Shown here: positions 5,589 to 42,419 of the stretch, in pieces
How the letters are laid out: each line of letters begins with the position of its first letter
How positions within the stretch are numbered: the first letter of the stretch is position 1
Source of the DNA: Bryobacterales bacterium
GTDB taxonomy: Bacteria > Acidobacteriota > Terriglobia > Bryobacterales > UBA6623
Assembly: GCA_965248365.1 (NCBI GenBank)
Contig: CBDFJA010000003.1
Coordinates: forward strand, 386,841 to 450,840
Direction: 5' to 3'
Length of the DNA stretch: 64,000 nucleotides
Program-made: the position numbers and the translations under genes
Notes under the pieces: model-generated
Told to the model about the DNA's origin: nothing
Seen by the model: only the letters and a program-made list of their open reading frames with translations
Database searches by the model: none

Positions 5589-5805
5589 GCCGCTTTTCTC
5601 ATCAGGTGGCGAGCCCGCTTTTCTCACCACGTAGCCGGCAGGAGCGGAAGCAAACGCCCGCCGTCAGGGATGTAGGGGTGCGATTTATCGCGCCCGCTTG
5701 CGGCATACTGTACGCTGGGCGACGTAGGGAAACTGTCGCCGCGAGCCGTGGCCACCGGGCCTTTCGCCGAATCCACTGCGGCCGCCGGCGAGAAATCCGG
5801 GCTAG
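5585..5805. repeat. MITE-like intergenic element, copy M1, with CTAG-tipped terminal inverted repeats
   Basis: Left ends are CTAGGCCGCTTTTCTCATCAGG and CGAGCCCGCTTTTCTCACCAC. The right end is GGCGAGAAATCCGGGCTAG. Internal hairpin GGGGTGCGATTTATCGCGCCC. Aligns over its length with the reverse complement of 8033..8238. Confidence 0.75.
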
Positions 5806-8035: not shown

Positions 8036-8238
8036 CTAACCCGCGTTTCTCACCACGGCCGCGGTGGATGAGGCGAAGGGCGCGGCGGTCATCGCTCGCG
8101 GCGACAGTTTGTGTGCCACTCCCTGCGTACAACCATGTCGGCAAGCGCGCGCGATGAATCGCGCCCCTACATCCCTGACGGCGGGCATTTGCTTGCACTT
8201 CTACCTGCAGCTGGCGAGAAAAGCGGGCTAAACGGGTT
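8033..8238. repeat. MITE-like element, copy M2b (opposite orientation to M1)
   Basis: Ends are CTAACCCGCGTTTCTCACCAC and GGCGAGAAAAGCGGGCTAA. Hairpin GCGCGCGATGAATCGCGCCCCTAC. Its reverse complement aligns with 5610..5805 along the whole length. Confidence 0.75.
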
Positions 8239-13338: not shown

Positions 13339-13539
13339 TGAGCCGGCATTGCTCGCCGGCCGACGATCCAGGCGCGCAAGCGGTCCGCCGTTACCTCGTT
13401 GCGCCTGCTCGCCGTGCTCAACGTAGGGTTCAAGTACGCCCGCATGATTCAAGAAATGCGGCGCCGAGCGGCGCGCGCTTGGTACTGGCAGTCCTCTCAC
13501 GCACTTCGCCTCGCGACCTGGTGAGAAAAGCGGGCTAGG
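13339..13539. repeat. MITE-like element, copy M4 (right terminus hit by IS481)
   Basis: Right end GGTGAGAAAAGCGGGCTAG at 13520-13538. Left end-like TGAGCCGGCATTGCTCGCC. Confidence 0.55.
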
Positions 13540-14565
13540 TGTGATCTTTCAACAGGTTGTTCATTCGGTCCCGGACCAGGGAAGCTGGAGTTGTCGAATA
13601 ACCACGACCCTGGAGAGACCGCATGAACATCCATCAGAATGCCCGATTGACGCCCAAAGGCCGAGCCCTTTTGGTTCGATGCATCCTCGCTGGAGAGACG
13701 CCTCGGGCCGCCGCGGCGGCCCGAGACGTCTCAGAACGCACCGCCCGCCGTTGGCTGGCCCGCTACCGCGGCGAAGGCGAAGCCGGTCTCTACGATCGCT
13801 CTTCGCGCCCCCGGCATAGCCCGCGCCGCACCCCGCAAGCCGTCGTTGACCGCGTCCTCGCCCTGCGCCGACAACGTTGGACGGGCCGCCGCATCACCCA
13901 AACCCTGCGGCTATCCCCGGCCACCGTCAGCCGCCTCCTCGGTCGCGCCGGACTCAACCGTCTCCGCGATCTCGAACCCGCTCCCCCCGTTCGCCGCTAC
14001 GAACATCACCGTCCCGGCGATCTACTGCGTCTCGACATCAAAAAGCTCGGCCGCTTCCAGCACGCCGGTCACCGCGTTACCGGCGATAAGACCCGACGCT
14101 CCCGCGCCGCCGGCTGGGAGTTCGTCCACGTCGCCGTCGACGACCATTCCCGCATCGCCTTCTCCCAGATCCTGCCCGATGAGCGCAGCCTTTCCGCTGC
14201 CCAGTTCCTTCTCCTCGCCCACGCCTACTATGGCTCGCTTGGCATCCGCATCCGACGCCTGCTCACCGACAATGGCTCCTGGTACCGCTCCCGCCACTTC
14301 CGTCGTACTTGCCGCCGCCTCGGCATCCGCCACCGCTTCACCCGCCCCTACACCCCTCGCACCAACGGCAAGGCCGAGCGCTTCATCCAAACCGCCCTCC
14401 GCGAATGGGCCTATGCCCGCTCCTACTGCTCCTCCCTCCAACGCGCCAACCATCTGCTCCCCTGGCTCCACGACTACAATTGGCATCGCCCCCACGCCAG
14501 CCTCGGCTATCATCCCCCTATCAGCCGACTCCCTCCTCCCCGGAACAACCTGTTGAGGCTCCACA
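13540..14565 (+). mobile_element. IS481-family insertion sequence, copy 1 (1026 bp), 6-bp TSD GCTAGG
   Basis: Inverted repeats TGTGATCTTTCAACAGGTTGTTC and TGTGGAGCCTCAACAGGTTGTTC (reverse complement). GCTAGG occurs at 13534-13539 and 14566-14571. Confidence 0.92.
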
Positions 14566-14570
14566 GCTAG
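13623..14570 (+). CDS. IS481-family DDE transposase
   Basis: 315 aa. N-terminal HTH, then DDE motifs LDIKKLGRF, LLTDNGSWY and NGKAERFIQT. The last codon and the TAG stop lie in the duplicated target. Confidence 0.92.
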   Translation: MNIHQNARLTPKGRALLVRCILAGETPRAAAAARDVSERTARRWLARYRGEGEAGLYDRSSRPRHSPRRTPQAVVDRVLALRRQRWTGRRITQTLRLSPATVSRLLGRAGLNRLRDLEPAPPVRRYEHHRPGDLLRLDIKKLGRFQHAGHRVTGDKTRRSRAAGWEFVHVAVDDHSRIAFSQILPDERSLSAAQFLLLAHAYYGSLGIRIRRLLTDNGSWYRSRHFRRTCRRLGIRHRFTRPYTPRTNGKAERFIQTALREWAYARSYCSSLQRANHLLPWLHDYNWHRPHASLGYHPPISRLPPPRNNLLRLHS

Positions 14571-14972
14571 GCCAACGTCAGCGTGATATCGTCGAGGGAG
14601 TTGCGGAGCGCCGACCAGCCCATGCCTTGACTTGTGGTCTTCTTGGTCACCATGACCACGGCGGCGCTCTTCTCGCGGATGATCGTCATGAAGTGATAGA
14701 CCTTCGGCGAAGAGATGAACATTTCCTCGAAAGAATCCTTGAGGTCCACGTCCCGCTTGCTTGGAGAGCAACTCCTCAACGCGGCGGACGTTCTTGCCGC
14801 AAAACATTTCGACGGCCGCGGCAGCCACGGCGTCCAAGTAAGATTGCGTAAAGTGCGCGACCGTGTGGTGAACTCCGATTAACATCCCGGTGTTGAGGTC
14901 GACAACCCCGACGGCCAAGCAATCGTCGACTTTATCCACCAGTTCTCTGCATAGATCTGCGGTGTTTGCCAT
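14567..14972 (-). pseudogene. Small roadblock/LC7-like (MglB-like) protein, frame-broken near 14757
   Basis: The N-terminal 72 codons (MANTADLCRELVDKVDDCLAVGVVDLNTGMLIGVHH...ELLSKQ) continue sensibly only in ORF 14567..14779 (RDVDLKDSFEEMFISSPKVYHF...LTLA*). One nucleotide separates the two frames. Confidence 0.5.
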
Positions 14973-17353: not shown

Positions 17354-17609
17354 CGCTCCGCGGGGCGCGCCGCTTGCTCGTCCCCTTTTGGCGTGCGTGT
17401 GCGCCGACTTCCCCTACGACTCGAGAACCCGTGCTGTGTTCGGCTCGCGGCGGGGCCCGCGCCCTGACGGGCACGGCTCTGTCCGGTTAACGCCGCGGGC
17501 CGTCGCCGCAAGAATGACGCCAGTAGGGACAAGCCCTCTTGCTTGTCCGGCCGTTTGTCGTTGCATGCAGCTCGGCGACCCGCGCTGTATCCGAGAAATG
17601 CGGGCTAGT
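17354..17609. repeat. Intergenic repeat M5 (variant family; right terminus CCGAGAAATGCGGGCTAG hit by IS481)
   Basis: Terminus at 17591-17608. Left end-like GCGCCGCTTGCTCGTCC. Contains the 35-nt core GGGCCCGCGCCCTGACGGGCACGGCTCTGTCCGGT, shared with 33904-33938 and 26928-26958. Confidence 0.6.
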
Positions 17610-18552
17610 TGTGGAGCCTCAACAGGTTGTTCCGGGGAGGAGGGAGTCGGCTGATAGGGGGATTATAGCCGAGGCTGGCGTGGGGGCGATGCCAATTGTA
17701 GTCGTGGAGCCAGGGGAGCAGATGGTTGGCGCGTTGGAGGGAGGAGCAGTAGGAGCGGGCATAGGCCCATTCGCGGAGGGCGGTTTGGATGAAGCGCTCG
17801 GCCTTGCCGTTGGTGCGAGGGGTGTAGGGGCGGGTGAAGCGGTGGCGGATGCCGAGGCGGCGGCAAGTACGACGGAAGTGGCGGGAGCGGTACCAGGAGC
17901 CATTGTCGGTGAGCAGGCGTCGGATGCGGATGCCAAGCGAGCCATAGTAGGCGTGGGCGAGGAGAAGGAACTGGGCAGCGGAAAGGCTGCGCTCATCGGG
18001 CAGGATCTGGGAGAAGGCGATGCGGGAATGGTCGTCGACGGCGACGTGGACGAACTCCCAGCCGGCGGCGCGGGAGCGTCGGGTCTTATCGCCGGTAACG
18101 CGGTGACCGGCGTGCTGGAAGCGGCCGAGCTTTTTGATGTCGAGATGCAGTAGATCGCCGGGACGGTGATGTTCGTAGCGGCGAACGGGGGGAGCGGGTT
18201 CGAGATCGCGGAGACGGTTGAGTCCGGCGCGACCGAGGAGGCGGCTGACGGTGGCCGGGGATAGCCGCAGGGTTTGGGCGATGCGGCGGCCCGTCCAACG
18301 TTGTCGGCGCAGGGCGAGGACGCGGTCAACGACGGCTTGCGGGGTGCGGCGCGGGCTATGCCGGGGACGCGAAGAGCGATCGTAGAGACCGGCTTCGCCT
18401 TCGCCGCGGTAGCGGGCCAGCCAACGGCGGGCGGTGCGTTCTGAGACGTCTCGGGCCGCCGCGGCGGCCCGAGGCGTCTCTCCAGCGAGGATGCATCGAA
18501 CCAAAAGGGCTCGGCCTTTGGGCGTCAATCGGGCATTCTGATGGATGTTCAT
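17605..18552 (-). CDS. IS481-family DDE transposase
   Basis: 315 aa, differing from copy 1 at a few residues (A/T, H/R, N/H). Ends ...LHN* because the flanking base differs. Confidence 0.92.
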   Translation of the reverse strand: MNIHQNARLTPKGRALLVRCILAGETPRAAAAARDVSERTARRWLARYRGEGEAGLYDRSSRPRHSPRRTPQAVVDRVLALRRQRWTGRRIAQTLRLSPATVSRLLGRAGLNRLRDLEPAPPVRRYEHHRPGDLLHLDIKKLGRFQHAGHRVTGDKTRRSRAAGWEFVHVAVDDHSRIAFSQILPDERSLSAAQFLLLAHAYYGSLGIRIRRLLTDNGSWYRSRHFRRTCRRLGIRHRFTRPYTPRTNGKAERFIQTALREWAYARSYCSSLQRANHLLPWLHDYNWHRPHASLGYNPPISRLPPPRNNLLRLHN

Positions 18553-18635
18553 GCGGTCTCTCCAGGGTCGTGGTTATTCGACAACTCCAGCTTCCCTGGT
18601 CCGGGACCGAATGAACAACCTGTTGAAAGATCACA
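17610..18635 (-). mobile_element. IS481-family insertion sequence, copy 2 (1026 bp), 6-bp TSD GCTAGT
   Basis: Same inverted repeats as copy 1. GCTAGT occurs at 17604-17609 and 18636-18641. Confidence 0.92.
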
Positions 18636-18636
18636 G

Positions 18637-19752
18637 CTAGTCCGACTTCGAATCGCGCTCTGCCTTGAAAGCCGCCAGCAGTCCTTCGAAGTCCGCCGTC
18701 GTCATCTTCACGGACGCGCGGATCAGCCTTTCTTCCGCCGCTACATCGATCGCGTCGAACAGCGTCATCGCCTGAGGATATTTTCCGCTCAGCGTCAGCC
18801 GGCCGAACGCCACCATCCCCCGGCTGGCATCGGCCAGCGTCTTGGCGTCCTCCGGGGTAGCGCAAACACCCTCGGTCTGAACATCGATTCCGTCCGTCAG
18901 ATCCGCCGCCAGACTCGATCTCTCCATGGAGCGGAAGATGCCGAAGGCGGGGATGTCGATCCCGCTCGGCAAGCTGCCGACCTGGCTCTCCCAAAGCTCT
19001 CCGGTGTTTAAGGAAACGGACCAGAGCTGGTTTGACGAGTTGAGCGTCTCCGCGCTTTCGAGCAACGGCTTGTTGTCGAGGAGACTCGGGCCGCCATCCA
19101 TTTTGCGGTCGATCGCGGCCATCACCGCGGATTTGTTTCCAGCGGCTGCTATCTGCTCATTAAAGAACACCAAGGAGAGGCCGTTCTCCAGTTGCCTAAA
19201 AAAATCTGATCCCGGAGCCTCGGGCGTTGAGCCGCTCGTTTCCGGCGTAGGCGGATGATACACGGTGACGCCACGGTACTCTTCGACGTCGCCGTGATCC
19301 TCGAACCACTTCCGAACGGTGTCTGTGAGGCTGAAGCGGCTTCTGGCAACGACAAGAGACTGTGCCCCGAGCGACTCACCCTCGTCATCGGGTCGATCGA
19401 TCCACCAGGCCGCCAGGACTTGATGGAGATCGCGCCGCGGGTCCAAGCCGATCTCGGCGGCCATGCGGTCGAAATCTTGATGAGCTTGCTCGTTCTCTCG
19501 ACTCTCTTCCCACAACCGGTAAACGGGCGTGGCTTTCAGCCGCTTCATGTCCAGGCCGCCCACGCCTGAATCCTCAGACGGCAGTAAGGCGGCGAGTTCG
19601 CGGTCCAGCCCCGAAGCCTGGGTCTCGTCCTCCGTCTGACAGGAGGAGAAAGCGAGAACCGCGGCAACGAGCACCGCCAGCAGACATGCCGCGGACCGAG
19701 TCGTGAGTTGTTTCTTGCCAAACCCCTTGCAGGGAAAAACATTTGTCAACAT
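18637..19752 (-). CDS. Hypothetical lipoprotein
   Basis: The ORF opens at 19911, but ATG 19752 gives MLTNVF...AVLAFSSCQ (lipobox-like) and lies 4 nt after the upstream gene's stop. Its TAG stop lies within the CTAG duplicated by IS481 copy 2. Confidence 0.6.
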   Translation of the reverse strand: MLTNVFPCKGFGKKQLTTRSAACLLAVLVAAVLAFSSCQTEDETQASGLDRELAALLPSEDSGVGGLDMKRLKATPVYRLWEESRENEQAHQDFDRMAAEIGLDPRRDLHQVLAAWWIDRPDDEGESLGAQSLVVARSRFSLTDTVRKWFEDHGDVEEYRGVTVYHPPTPETSGSTPEAPGSDFFRQLENGLSLVFFNEQIAAAGNKSAVMAAIDRKMDGGPSLLDNKPLLESAETLNSSNQLWSVSLNTGELWESQVGSLPSGIDIPAFGIFRSMERSSLAADLTDGIDVQTEGVCATPEDAKTLADASRGMVAFGRLTLSGKYPQAMTLFDAIDVAAEERLIRASVKMTTADFEGLLAAFKAERDSKSD

Positions 19753-24280: not shown

Positions 24281-24340
24281 TCACTGTAAAAAGATGCTTA
24301 ACGAGTTGTCTCATTTTCGGGGTCCACTCCAAGGCAAGAG

Positions 24341-24408
24341 ATGGCAGGGAAGCGATTTAGTGCAGAACAGATCATCATCAAGTTGCGTGAGGCAGAGGTG
24401 GGTCTAGC
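24341..24408 (+). pseudogene. IS3 element B orfA, 5' fragment (interrupted by IS481 copy 3)
   Basis: MAGKRFSAEQIIIKLREAEVGL. A Shine-Dalgarno-like AAGGAGG is restored upstream once element A is removed. Confidence 0.8.
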
Positions 24409-25351
24409 TGTGGAGCCTCAACAGGTTGTTCCGGGGAGGAGGGAGTCGGCTGATAGGGGGATGATAGCCGAGGCTGGCGTGGGGGCGATGCCAATTGTAG
24501 TCGTGGAGCCAGGGGAGCAGATGGTTGGCGCGTTGGAGGGAGGAGCAGTAGGAGCGGGCATAGGCCCATTCGCGGAGGGCGGTTTGGATGAAGCGCTCGG
24601 CCTTGCCGTTGGTGCGAGGGGTGTAGGGGCGGGTGAAGCGGTGGCGGATGCCGAGGCGGCGGCAAGTACGACGGAAGTGGCGGGAGCGGTACCAGGAGCC
24701 ATTGTCGGTGAGCAGGCGTCGGATGCGGATGCCAAGCGAGCCATAGTAGGCGTGGGCGAGGAGAAGGAACTGGGCAGCGGAAAGGCTGCGCTCATCGGGC
24801 AGGATCTGGGAGAAGGCGATGCGGGAATGGTCGTCGACGGCGACGTGGACGAACTCCCAGCCGGCGGCGCGGGAGCGTCGGGTCTTATCGCCGGTAACGC
24901 GGTGACCGGCGTGCTGGAAGCGGCCGAGCTTTTTGATGTCGAGATGCAGTAGATCGCCGGGACGGTGATGTTCGTAGCGGCGAACGGGGGGAGCGGGTTC
25001 GAGATCGCGGAGACGGTTGAGTCCGGCGCGACCGAGGAGGCGGCTGACGGTGGCCGGGGATAGCCGCAGGGTTTGGGCGATGCGGCGGCCCGTCCAACGT
25101 TGTCGGCGCAGGGCGAGGACGCGGTCAACGACGGCTTGCGGGGTGCGGCGCGGGCTATGCCGGGGGCGCGAAGAGCGATCGTAGAGACCGGCTTCGCCTT
25201 CGCCGCGGTAGCGGGCCAGCCAACGGCGGGCGGTGCGTTCTGAGACGTCTCGGGCCGCCGCGGCGGCCCGAGGCGTCTCTCCAGCGAGGATGCATCGAAC
25301 CAAAAGGGCTCGGCCTTTGGGCGTCAATCGGGCATTCTGATGGATGTTCAT
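24404..25351 (-). CDS. IS481-family DDE transposase
   Basis: 315 aa, near-identical to the other two copies. Confidence 0.92.
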   Translation of the reverse strand: MNIHQNARLTPKGRALLVRCILAGETPRAAAAARDVSERTARRWLARYRGEGEAGLYDRSSRPRHSPRRTPQAVVDRVLALRRQRWTGRRIAQTLRLSPATVSRLLGRAGLNRLRDLEPAPPVRRYEHHRPGDLLHLDIKKLGRFQHAGHRVTGDKTRRSRAAGWEFVHVAVDDHSRIAFSQILPDERSLSAAQFLLLAHAYYGSLGIRIRRLLTDNGSWYRSRHFRRTCRRLGIRHRFTRPYTPRTNGKAERFIQTALREWAYARSYCSSLQRANHLLPWLHDYNWHRPHASLGYHPPISRLPPPRNNLLRLHS

Positions 25352-25434
25352 GCGGTCTCTCCAGGGTCGTGGTTATTAGACAACTCCAGCTTCCCTGGTC
25401 CGGGACCGAATGAACAACCTGTTGAAAGATCACA
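24409..25434 (-). mobile_element. IS481-family insertion sequence, copy 3 (1026 bp), 6-bp TSD TCTAGC, nested in IS3 element B orfA
   Basis: Same inverted repeats as copies 1 and 2. TCTAGC occurs at 24403-24408 and 25435-25440. Confidence 0.92.
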
Positions 25435-25440
25435 TCTAGC

Positions 25441-25651
25441 TCAAGGACAGACGGTGGGCCAGGTGTGCAAACAGATTGGGGTGACCGAGCAGACCTACTA
25501 CCGGTGGCGCAAGGAGTACGGAGGGCTTCGACTGAATCAGGCCAAGCGGTTGAAGGTGTTGGAGAAGGAGAATGCCCGGTTGAAGAAGCTAGTGGCAGAT
25601 CTGTCTTTGGACAAGCAGATCCTAAAGGAAGTTTCCTCGGGAAACTTCTAG
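25441..25651 (+). pseudogene. IS3 element B orfA, 3' fragment
   Basis: In frame with 24341-24408 after excision. The restored protein reads ...[33 protein letters not shown]...LKEVSSGNF* (92 aa). Confidence 0.8.
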
Positions 25652-26584: not shown

Positions 26585-26950
26585 CTAAACCACCAGCACC
26601 TGATTGTCGTGACAATCGGGACTGATCGCCGCGTGCAGCCGTTCGATAAAATCAGGCCCGTGGCGGGCAAGGAAAGCAAGGACCAAATAGACTCGCTCCT
26701 GCTGAGTTTTGTTGGATAGAGCAGATTCGACAAGGCCTCGATCTGGGGCTGGACTTCGGCGTTGCGGCGGAGGCTTTCACGGACCGCCTTGCCGCGAATC
26801 TTCCCCAACTGGTAGAGCATTCTGCTCCGCGCCGTGGCAAGGGCCGAGCTAAGGGTGGAATCGAACTCCGCGAGGCTTTTGTCGATGGTCTGAATAGAGT
26901 TTTCAATCCCGGCCGCGCCCTGCTGGAAACAGAGCCGTGCCCGTAAGGGC
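26585..26950 (-). pseudogene. bshC: C-terminal remnant of a BshC-like (bacillithiol cysteine-adding enzyme) gene; no start codon, 1-nt frame break
   Basis: Reads ...IENSIQTIDKSLAEFDSTLSSALATARSRMLYQLGKIRGKAVRESLRRNAEVQPQIEALSNLLYPTK, then after a 1-nt shift at an A-run QQERVYLVLAFLARHGPDFIERLHAAI...*. This resembles the BshC C-terminal coiled-coil and LQER...YGP region, assigned from memory only. Confidence 0.45.
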
Positions 26951-26964
26951 GCGGGCCCGCCGGC

Positions 26965-30726: not shown

Positions 30727-30919
30727 CTAGCCCGCTTGCTCACGAAGGGTTCGGATGGTTGGCGTTGAACGAGCATTATTTGTACAGGCCGACCAGGTGT
30801 CGGCCCGCTACCGGTCAGCACATATTGTCCGGTGCGAATTTGTGCCAAAAATCGGCCATTGACCCTACTGGGCCGGCACGGAGGCCCGCCCTACGCACTC
30901 TTCGTGAGAAATGCGGGCA
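30727..30919. repeat. MITE-like element, copy M7
   Basis: Ends CTAGCCCGCTTGCTCACGAAG and CTTCGTGAGAAATGCGGGCA. Central hairpin GTACAGGCCGACCAGGTGTCGGCCCGCTAC. Confidence 0.7.
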
Positions 30920-33789: not shown

Positions 33790-34063
33790 GTGCCCATGGG
33801 CCTGCGGCGCACCCATAGGGATGAACAAACTGGCGGGTTTCGACGGAGCGGTCATCTGTGGGCAACGATGGGCGTTTTCCCATCGACACGGGCCTCGGCT
33901 TTCACCGGACAGAGCCGTGCCCGTCAGGGCGCGGGCCCGTCGCGGCGCCGGACACACGGCCTGTCACTAGCGTTCCAGGCTCAGCTTCTTGCTCACGCAC
34001 ACCCTTGCCATGCCCGATTCGGAGCCGTGAGCGCAAGCGAGCGGCCATGGTCCTCACTAGCCC
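33790..34063. repeat. Intergenic repeat M6 (same variant family as M5, opposite orientation)
   Basis: Carries the reverse complement of the 35-nt core (ACCGGACAGAGCCGTGCCCGTCAGGGCGCGGGCCC, 33904-33938). A CTAGCCCGCC terminus lies at 34054-34063. Confidence 0.6.
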
Positions 34064-40547: not shown

Positions 40548-41328
40548 TTGATGACTGGCTCTGTTGATCCCGCCATACCTACTTATCGGAGTCCCTTCGG
40601 TGGTCTCTGGCCCGATCTGAACCATGCGCCGTTTCTCATTCGAGGGAAATTTGAGCTAGGCCTAATCACCGAGGAACAGGTCAAGCAATTGGAGCACTGG
40701 GTCGAGCACGGCTATCTCATAATCCCCAATGCGGTACCAGGCGAAGTGGTTGACCTGGTTAACTCCGACGTGGAACGAGCCTGGCGGGGCGAGTTGCCTT
40801 CGCTTCGGATAGAGCATTGGGAGAACAACGCCAGACACGTAGTGCCGATCAAGCCCGAAATCAGGGATAAGCCGCATAAGCTCCTCGATATCTATAGTGC
40901 GTCCGAGGCAGCGCGCCGTGCGATCTTCTCGCAGCCCATTTTCGACTTTCTGGCCCTAGTCTTCGAGCGTCCGCCGATGGCATTCCAGAGTCTTTCTTTC
41001 ATGCGAGGTATGCGAGGTATTGGCCAACCAATCCACAAAGACACTGCCTACGTCGTGGTTCGCTCACCGATGGAGTGCGCCGCCTCATGGATCGCACTAG
41101 AAGACATTCAACCCAATTCCGGGGCCTTGGAATACTACGAGGGGAGTCACCGAGGGGAAGAGTATCTCTTCAATGGGAAGCACAAGAGCATGCCCGAAGG
41201 CTACGCGGAAGAAGAGCGATATCTCAGTTCCTTGCACGAGCAGGCCCGAGAAATGGGACTTCCTAGAAAGCAGTTCTTCCCGCGCAAGGGGGACGCCTTG
41301 ATCTGGTCAGCGGACCTGGCTCACGGCG
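40548..41328 (+). pseudogene. Phytanoyl-CoA dioxygenase (PhyH)-family Fe(II)/2-oxoglutarate oxygenase, 3'-truncated at an IS630 fragment
   Basis: HKD (HxD) and GSHRG motifs. The reading ...ALIWSADLAHGE runs directly into IS630 internal sequence in a non-transposase frame. Confidence 0.7.
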
Positions 41329-41602
41329 AGCCGCCTGGTGCGGGAGTTCATCGAGCTCTCCGAAGGCCACATCGCCACGGAGTGCTTGCCGCCCTATGCA
41401 CCGGAGCTGAACCCGGTGGAATACATTTGGGCTTACTGGAAGCAGCACGAGTTGCCGAACGTCTGTCCGAAGGACTACTGGGAGCTGGACGAGCGTGCCC
41501 GCAAATCCCTGCGTCGCATGCGCCGCAAACCGCGCTTGATTACGGCCTTCTGGAAGCAGTCTTCTCTTGGCCTTGACTAACTCGATATTATGCGAGATTC
41601 AA
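41329..41602 (+). mobile_element. IS630-family 3' fragment A (274 bp, intact terminal inverted repeat, 5' part missing)
   Basis: Looks the same by eye as the corresponding part of 324..~600 (reverse complement). Ends ...GCGAGATTCAA followed by TA at 41603-41604. Encodes the transposase C-terminus REFIELSEGHIATECLPPYAPELNPVEYIW... Confidence 0.85.
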
Positions 41603-42120
41603 TAAACGCGTTGCCGAAAAGGATCGAGGGAGTTGCGGTAATTGAGGTGCTGCTGATCAACGACGGTAGTACAGATGGCACGGTAGAGATAGCGCGACAG
41701 CTGAACGTCGATCATATTTTGGATTTCAGGACCCATCGAGGTCTAGCCAAAGTCTTCCTCGCCGGACTCCGAGAATCAGCCCGGCTGGGAGCGTCCTTCG
41801 TAGTTAACTTGGATGCTGACAACCAATACAACGCTGACGATATTCCTAAGCTGCTGGGGCCGCTTTTGGAAGGCAGGGCCGACATCGTGGTCGGGGAGCG
41901 ACCGATCGGCGAGATCAAGCACTTCTCCGCAGCCAAGAAGGTGTTCCAGCACTTCGGTTCATGGGTGGTGAAGGGTCTGTCGAAAACTGATGTCCGCGAC
42001 AGCCCCAGCGGATTTCGAGCGTTCAATCGGACGGCGATGCAAAGGCTATTCATCTTTGGTGACTATACCTATACACACGAGTCACTAATCGCGGCCCACG
42101 AGTCCGACTTAAGAGTCCTA
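41603..42120 (+). pseudogene. Internal fragment of a family-2 glycosyltransferase gene (DPM1-like), bracketed by IS630 ends
   Basis: Contains LLINDGSTDGT and NLDADNQY (DxD). It lacks the N-terminal ~25 aa and the C-terminal domain. Track ORF 41590..42135 starts and stops inside the IS inverted repeats. Confidence 0.75.
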
Positions 42121-42419
42121 TTGAATCTCGCATAATATAGAGTTAGTCAGGGCCAAGAGGAGACTGCTTCCAGAAGGCCGTGATCAAGCGCGGTTTGCGG
42201 CGCATGCGACGCAGGGATTTGCGGGCACGCTCGTCCAGCTCCCAGTAGTCCTTCGGACAGACGTTCGGCAACTCGTGCTGCTTCCAGTAAGCCCAAATGT
42301 ATTCCACCGGGTTCAGCTCCGGTGCATAGGGCGGCAAGCACTCCGTGGCGATGTGGCCTTCGGAGAGCTCGATGAACTCCCGCACCAGGCGGCTGCGGTG
42401 CGCCGGCAGGCGGTCCCAG
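42121..42419 (-). mobile_element. IS630-family 3' fragment B (299 bp, intact terminal inverted repeat, 5' part missing, slightly diverged)
   Basis: Starts TTGAATCTCGCATAATATAG, preceded by TA at 42119-42120. Homology to the full copy ends after ...GGCGGTCCCAG. There are 3 substitutions in the first ~50 nt relative to copy 324.. Confidence 0.85.

Follow-up and report, generated by a model that had tools for sequence, protein, structure and literature searches.

Two copies of a 1026-bp insertion sequence (IS) of the IS481 family are found at the same position beside the end of a short dispersed repeat in a 64,000-nucleotide stretch of a Bryobacterales genome (contig CBDFJA010000003.1, positions 386,841 to 450,840; the whole stretch is referred to as the window, and coordinates count from its first letter). 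At both sites the target tetranucleotide, CTAG, also contains the stop codon of the adjoining gene. A first-pass annotation had proposed that the repeat acts as a landing pad that directs the IS to gene ends. The association proved to be real, but occupancy follows a 10-bp palindrome, GGNCTAGNCC, and not the repeat as such. The repeat has the properties of a miniature inverted-repeat transposable element (MITE), and the three layers arose in the order stop codon, MITE, IS. Taken as a whole, an account in which the stop codons came first, then the MITE, then a palindrome-preferring IS481 element is probably correct.

Two insertions at the same junction

Copy 1 of the IS (13540-14565, plus strand) is bordered by the duplication GCTAGG at 13534-13539 and 14566-14571. 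Copy 2 (17610-18635, minus strand) is bordered by GCTAGT at 17604-17609 and 18636-18641. Both target CTAGs are directly preceded by GAGAAA[A/T]GCGGG, with the repeat terminus GAGAAAWGCGGG abutting CTAG at the same position, and the two sites share 15 of 16 bases. A search of the window with GAGAAANNCGGGCTAG, allowing up to two mismatches, gave 10 matches where 0.66 were expected; none of 100 shuffled sequences reached 10. On the far side of each IS, the CTAG holds the TAG stop of a minus-strand gene, present as CTA at 14567-14569 and 18637-18639. The two open reading frames (ORFs) have third-position GC contents (GC3) of 0.78 and 0.80, which is coding-like. The first-pass annotation was thus accurate in placing both copies at one position of the repeat end and in recognizing the stop codon within the CTAG. 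A third copy (24409-25434, minus strand), bordered by TCTAGC at 24403-24408 and 25435-25440, lies within the orfA of an IS3-family element and away from the repeats. All three duplications have the form NCTAGN that the annotation had assigned to IS481.

The preferred target is an extended palindrome

The transposase was used as a query to collect 79 loci from species-representative genomes. Within the lineage, one metagenome-assembled genome (MAG) carries seven copies (85-91% protein identity), a second MAG one copy (92%) and a third about 40 copies (76-83%). A logo of 43 insertion sites, 40 from the MAGs and three from the window, showed G at position -4 in 34 sites, G at -3 in 29, C at +4 in 30 and C at +5 in 35. 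The preferred site of this Bryobacterales IS481 lineage is the 10-bp palindrome GGNCTAGNCC, which is wider than NCTAGN. GG was present at 42 of 74 occupied half-sites (57%) versus 57 of 656 background CTAG half-sites (9%; Fisher p = 2e-21), and the full palindrome at 9 of 37 occupied versus 1 of 328 unoccupied sites.

A position matrix trained on 33 MAG sites, none of them at a repeat end, was used to score the 68 CTAGs of the window after excision of the IS copies. The CTAG at 17605 ranked first, that at 13535 second, and the third occupied site 11th. The CTAGs at IS-free MITE ends rank 9th and 17th (copy at 5589-5801) and 10th (copy at 30731-30917), lower than the two occupied ends because only the MITE-side half of these sites is good. 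Occupancy in the close lineage, defined as the window plus two MAGs with 11 insertions in all, depended on the number of GG half-sites flanking the CTAG: 0 of 88 sites with none, 5 of 41 with one and 6 of 7 with two were occupied. MITE ends show the same behavior. Those with one half-site, their own, were never occupied (0 of 9) and those with two always were (5 of 5). Of the 22 good half-sites in the window, 5 belong to MITE ends, as do 5 of the 7 full palindromic sites that were sampled.

These numbers bear directly on the landing-pad proposal, in which the transposase or a host factor would recognize the repeat terminus beyond the palindrome, for example through the GAGAAA box or a DNA structure. 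Part of the proposal stands. Five of the 11 close-lineage insertions abut a MITE end, compared with 9 of 125 unoccupied CTAGs (7%; Fisher p = 0.0018), an association beyond what CTAG occurrence alone predicts. The share of full sites contributed by repeat ends and the 15 bases common to the two window sites also fit such recognition. However, the matrix placed both sites first and second without having been trained on any repeat end, repeat ends lacking the second half-site were empty, and the enrichment at MITE ends was not significant once the comparison was limited to CTAGs with one or two half-sites (p = 0.26). The IS is also found in both orientations: the MITE adjoins the left repeat of the IS in copy 1 and locus L006 and the right repeat in copy 2 and loci L031 and L043, as expected for a palindromic target. 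Finally, in the lineage of 77% identity, where the MITE is rare, none of 37 copies is at a MITE and the GG/CC preference is unchanged. The repeat is neither sufficient nor specifically recognized, the landing pad is not supported as stated, and true recognition of the terminus is considered improbable.

A second alternative is that the IS strikes CTAGs at random and that only insertions at harmless positions, for instance repeat ends and stop codons, survive, the shared flank then merely mirroring where neutral CTAGs lie. Several observations are compatible with it. CTAG is moderately depleted in the window (71 observed, 111 expected), which bears out the scarcity noted by the first-pass annotation; likely stop codons coincide with about 10 of the 68 CTAGs in the window; of 40 related copies, 29 lie between genes or at stop codons; and by CTAG count alone, at least two of three insertions would fall at repeat ends with a probability of about 0.015. 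Yet the bias in the flanks has palindromic symmetry and extends to intragenic-looking insertions, the contrast between occupied and background GG half-sites is very large, and the nine repeat ends with a poor outer flank are empty in spite of their neutral-looking positions. Chance followed by selection is therefore an even less probable explanation than recognition of the terminus. The symmetry of the bias and its presence at non-repeat and intragenic sites point instead to a preference that is probably intrinsic to the transposase.

A MITE-like repeat with a probable target duplication of its own

The repeat is non-coding and mostly 176-213 bp long, with copies of up to about 230 bp and one decayed copy of 140 bp. 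At least five MITE-like copies are present in the window and at least ten in related loci. Their inverted termini, CCCGCWTTTCTCACC and GGTGAGAAAWGCGGG, are common to at least three unrelated core types, as expected for non-autonomous elements mobilized by one transposase.

The copy beside IS copy 1 (13343-13534, plus strand) belongs to subfamily A. Its right terminus, GGTGAGAAAAGCGGG, is intact, and its left terminus is degenerate (CCGGCATTGCTCGCC) and preceded by TGAG. Over about 198 bp it matches copies in MAG loci L043, L005, L031, L003 and L017 at 72-84% identity. The copy beside IS copy 2 (17373-17604, plus strand) is rearranged; its right terminus, CCGAGAAATGCGGG, is the same, its left terminus, GCCGCTTGCTCGTCC, is degenerate, and its core differs. 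Within this core, a 69-bp segment (17435-17503) is 84% identical to 33888-33956, and a 30-bp segment is shared with 26929-26958; these matches represent another short dispersed repeat. The other copies in the window include one of subfamily B at 5589-5801, with CTAG on both flanks and an extra internal left terminus at 5614; a second of subfamily B in reversed orientation at 8040-8227, flanked by the direct repeat CTAA...CTAA; and one of a third core type at 30731-30917, whose left flank is CTAG and whose right flank is a decayed CAAA. The copies at 5589-5801 and 30731-30917 are IS-free.

The flanks of these copies suggest a revision of the first-pass annotation, which had taken CTAG to be the terminus of the repeat itself. 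Eleven complete flank pairs were available. Four are CTAG/CTAG, and two are perfect but non-palindromic direct repeats (CTAA/CTAA at window 8040 and TTAG/TTAG in L003); another three fit direct repeats better than inverted ones. If the tetranucleotide were part of the terminus, the two ends would be reverse complements; since CTAA/CTAA and TTAG/TTAG are direct, it appears to lie outside the inverted repeat. The CTAG flanking the MITE is better read as a 4-bp YTAR target duplication. A YTAR duplication is characteristic of IS5 (PMC5009759), and on the strength of the duplication the MITE may be moved by an IS5-like enzyme.

Other identities for the repeat were tried. Duplications of 2 bp (TA) or 6 bp agree less well with the flanks than one of 4 bp. 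Derivation of the MITE from the IS481 element or from an IS630-like element was ruled out, the termini being unrelated. REP (repetitive extragenic palindromic) sequences and the REPINs built from them are imperfect palindromes of about 20-40 bp with a GTAG-type 5' tetranucleotide and a link to a REP-associated tyrosine transposase (RAYT). The present repeat was rejected as one of these on structural grounds, with no search made for a RAYT gene: its terminus GAGAAAWGCGGG is not a palindrome, and its units measure about 180-230 bp, have inverted termini and are bordered by a target duplication. Rfam and tRNA scans showed that the repeats fit no known RNA family. The window and about 300 kb of related loci yielded no element with the MITE termini more than 300 bp apart, as an autonomous partner would have.

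The order of insertion events

Orthologues of the gene beside copy 2 led to four informative contigs, L200, L201, L202 and L203. L200, which is 99.8-99.9% identical to the window, has neither copy 1 nor copy 2, and a single GCTAGG and a single GCTAGT are present at its MITE-gene junctions. L201, about 95% identical, likewise has both junctions without the IS. The subfamily A element of 13343-13534 is present at the orthologous site in both contigs; in the L201 spacer orthologous to 17373-17604 the MITE cores are different, but the terminal junction is unchanged. Comparison with relatives lacking the insertions, as suggested by the first-pass annotation, thus recovered empty sites with the MITE junctions retained. 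One step further back, L202 and L203 contain orthologues of the gene beside copy 2 (81% and 69% protein identity) that end ...TCG GAC TAG, within a CTAG, with no MITE adjoining. The sequence of events is shown to be stop-codon CTAG, then MITE, then IS.

The association with gene ends therefore came from the MITE and was inherited by the IS, since the MITE chose a CTAG holding a stop codon and insertions there are tolerated.

The same comparisons bear on a third alternative, in which the terminus belongs to a longer form of the IS or travels with it as a composite unit. The IS does lie beside a repeat end in five loci of three genomes. Against this, the 6-bp duplication encloses the 1026-bp IS only and leaves the repeat outside, the repeat can be on either side of the IS, the empty sites of L200 and L201 retain the repeat alone, and divergence is far greater among the repeats, MITE copies being 72-85% identical to one another as compared with 99.6% for the IS. 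A composite element is extremely improbable. The near-identity of the IS copies, together with the lack of both insertions in a strain of 99.9% identity, indirectly supports recent movement of the IS.

The metagenome searches added no further member of this lineage. A degenerate 29-mer for the empty site had no matches in the JGI metagenomes, and a metagenome scan with a 22-mer from the right-hand repeat recovered distant IS481 relatives only (71-77% nucleotide identity).

Two side observations concern these loci. At the MITE-free orthologous gene end in L202 (5110-5125), the sequence GGCTAGACTAGTCC has two CTAGs one base apart, which could be the footprint of a past insertion and excision or could be chance. 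In MAG CAXWPI01, the duplications of L006 and L043 are GCTAGG/GCTAGC and CCTAGC/GCTAGG, respectively. Exchanging the flanks of the two loci would restore a perfect GCTAGG duplication around a single IS placed between two MITE ends, which suggests recombination between IS copies.

A model for the nested insertions

The observations can be assembled into a stepwise model. Two minus-strand genes originally ended ...C TAG, their stop codons lying within a palindromic CTAG. A non-autonomous MITE with termini CCCGCWTTTCTCACC / GGTGAGAAAWGCGGG then inserted into these stop CTAGs, duplicating a 4-bp YTAR target as IS5 does, and its end thereafter read ...GCGGG-CTAG. Much later, the 1026-bp IS481-family element, which duplicates NCTAGN and favors GGNCTAGNCC, inserted. 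The GG(G) half of its target comes from the last bases of the MITE and the (N)CC half from the last sense codon of the gene, which is GCC, or GAC preceded by G. Both junctions are the best sites in the region because the MITE end and the gene end together complete the palindrome. The 6-bp duplication restores the host stop codon on one side of the IS and supplies the transposase stop on the other.

Some points weigh against the model. The unoccupied sites used for comparison came only from the window itself (64 kb) and from flanks of 3 kb around IS copies, and the close-lineage sample is small (11 sites). Two of these, L006 and L043, may stem from a single insertion followed by recombination, their duplications being mismatched in a complementary way. 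The MITE end may contribute something more than its share of the 10-bp motif, and selection against harmful insertions could add to the flank bias. As to the MITE, duplication of a 2-bp TA is a less likely alternative, and the autonomous partner was not found.

Anatomy of the IS481-family element

The three IS copies in the window differ pairwise by 3-4 nt in 1026 (99.6% identical). The ends are imperfect 23-bp inverted repeats, in copy 1 at 13540-13562 and 14543-14565, which match at 18 of 23 positions (TGTGATCTTTCAACAGGTTGTTC versus TGTGGAGCCTCAACAGGTTGTTC). In copy 2 it is the right-hand inverted repeat that faces the MITE. The single transposase gene (13623-14570 in copy 1, plus strand; 315 amino acids) matches the Pfam domains PF13011 LZ_Tnp_IS481 (5e-17), PF00665 rve (1e-14) and PF13683 rve_3 (2e-18), as well as HTH_32. 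This gene lacks a stop codon within the element: the reading frame crosses the right inverted repeat and is closed by the TAG at 14568-14570, inside the duplicated CTAG. This architecture is present in every related locus examined, including those of other phyla. An NCTAGN duplication is the hallmark of IS481. With its transposase domains, length of about 1 kb, inverted repeats, NCTAGN duplication and borrowed TAG stop, the element is a member of the IS481 family.

The duplications thus serve several reading frames at once. In copy 1, the CTAG of the left duplication (13535-13538) doubles as the MITE-flanking tetranucleotide, and that of the right duplication (14567-14570) provides TAG both to the transposase on the plus strand and to the host gene on the minus strand. 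In copy 2, the transposase stop is the CTA at 17605-17607 (minus strand) in the left duplication, and the host gene stop is the CTA at 18637-18639 in the right duplication. Perfect 6-bp duplications were present at 31 of 47 sites, three in the window and 28 in related loci; most of the others still share the CTAG core.

The claim that the element spares coding sequence by landing at gene ends holds in part. The duplication does preserve the stop codons of both neighboring genes. However, about a quarter of the related copies look intragenic, and copy 3 is an IS-in-IS insertion that breaks the IS3-family coding sequence; when orfA is re-joined across it (window 24300-25650), the product matches HTH_Tnp_1 of Pfam.

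Two further features of the transposase end were observed. Its last sense codon is an A followed by the two leading bases of the duplication, so that the first base of each target site determines whether the protein ends in Ser, Asn, Thr or Ile. Across the 43 sites TAG is invariant and the C of CTAG varies in three, a pattern that fits the need for a stop codon but is not significant.

The adjoining genes

The first-pass annotation had labeled the gene beside copy 1 (14567-14972, minus strand) as roadblock-like and that beside copy 2 (18637-19752, minus strand) as a lipoprotein. Neither label is supported by Pfam, in which no domain was found in either product or in the orthologues of the second. 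The first gene matches a 134-amino-acid protein, and orthologues of the second are 336-371 amino acids long. The first gene has a +1 frameshift, one extra A near 14757 (AAGCAAGCGGG versus AAGC-AGCG in the intact 134-amino-acid orthologue of L201). L200 has the same frameshift, which hence predates the IS insertion, unless it is a long-read sequencing error common to both.

Relation to known elements

Sharing of a stop codon with the target duplication has been described for other IS481 elements. In ISRe46/TnRErm46 of Rhodococcus equi, the TAG of the right duplication is reported to serve as the transposase stop and the left duplication to supply the stop of parB (PMC6794481). In ISLxc2 of Leifsonia and in ISLxx4, the transposase stop also lies inside the insertion site (PMC2516522). 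The present element resembles IS481 of Bordetella pertussis, ISLxc2 and ISRe46 in having a length of about 1 kb, a single DDE transposase with leucine-zipper and rve domains, and a 6-bp NCTAGN duplication. As in the IS481 family, its inverted repeats begin with TGTG and its transposase stop comes from the TAG of the right-hand duplication. It differs from described members in the wider preference, GGNCTAGNCC, of this Bryobacterales lineage. A limited literature search found no account of a preference extended in this way, nor of IS481 sites seeded by the duplications of MITEs.

In soil metagenomes, distant IS481 relatives differ from this lineage in preferring CTAG followed by A/C-G-C, and the outer target positions appear to be lineage-specific. 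The flanks of these soil relatives (L164, L093, L139, L081, L141; L111, L121, L166, L174, L177, L193, L087) often begin with CTAGAGC and belong to other short repeats, with flank groups of the form ..GATCATGCTCTAG / AGCATGATCCCGAAAAGTGG.. and ..AATCCG.TCAGATTGAATCGCG.. In L164 the IS is at the exact center of a 44-bp perfect palindrome. Insertion at the centers of repeats or palindromes may recur in other IS481 lineages. Tandem arrays of the 7-mer GCTAGAA border IS481-like elements in an Acidobacteriaceae MAG, with about 11 units in L054 (about 2836-2916). Such arrays, in which the target-duplication sequence of the element itself is repeated, also occur in L046 (about 2900-2916 and the right flank). 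Long palindromic targets as a general rule were rejected, only the isolated cases L164 and L168 being found.

The MITE resembles IS5-type MITEs in being short, non-coding and multi-copy, with conserved inverted termini, variable cores and direct CTAG, CTAA or TTAG flanks that agree with the YTAR duplication. Its termini, CCCGCWTTTCTCACC, are not known to resemble the ends of IS5. The relationship of the two elements also recalls IS1397 and ISKpn1, which target the palindromic units of enterobacterial REP sequences and bacterial interspersed mosaic elements (BIMEs). There, too, an IS recurs at a fixed position of a dispersed intergenic repeat and insertions are kept out of genes. Unlike these systems, the MITE gives only three bases plus its target duplication, the 10-bp motif occurs elsewhere, and repeat ends with a poor flank are unused.

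A third element uses the same tetranucleotide. An IS630-like element at 322-1420 of the window is also in a CTAG, but it duplicates TA, and its ends, TTGAATCTCGCATAATAT, are unrelated to the MITE termini. CTAG is the shared target of three mobile-element types in this genome. The IS630-family element is about 1.1 kb long, has DDE_3 and HTH genes, and is present as partial copies at 41318-41605 and 42119-42419. An additional copy in L200 (4874-5973) occupies a TTAA immediately upstream of the frameshifted gene, corresponding to window 14983/14984; on this evidence the IS630-family element is active and polymorphic in the population.

Significance

The observation made by the first-pass annotation is correct and non-random, with no artefact found: a typical IS481-family element lies beside a typical MITE. 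No new mechanism is involved, stop-codon sharing having already been published for the IS481 family (PMC6794481, PMC2516522). The three-layer overlap results from a shared CTAG target, a lineage-specific 10-bp preference and duplications that regenerate stop codons. What looks like a landing pad can be explained by ordinary preference, the target duplication of one element and its last three bases forming half of the target of another.

The stepwise history from stop codon to MITE to IS is documented at two loci. The analysis also gives a sharper target definition for an IS481 lineage, 10 bp as compared with the 4-6 bp usually quoted, which aids the prediction of insertion hot spots and the annotation of Acidobacteriota genomes. 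A broader idea, unlikely at present, is that IS481 lineages evolve extended palindromes that match abundant host-MITE junctions, here GGNCTAGNCC and ...GGG-CTAG. If so, each MITE insertion at a gene end would create sites where the IS can dock safely and with high affinity, and two unrelated transposon families would be joined in a commensal link, with CTAG as the hub and the IS630-like element as its third user.

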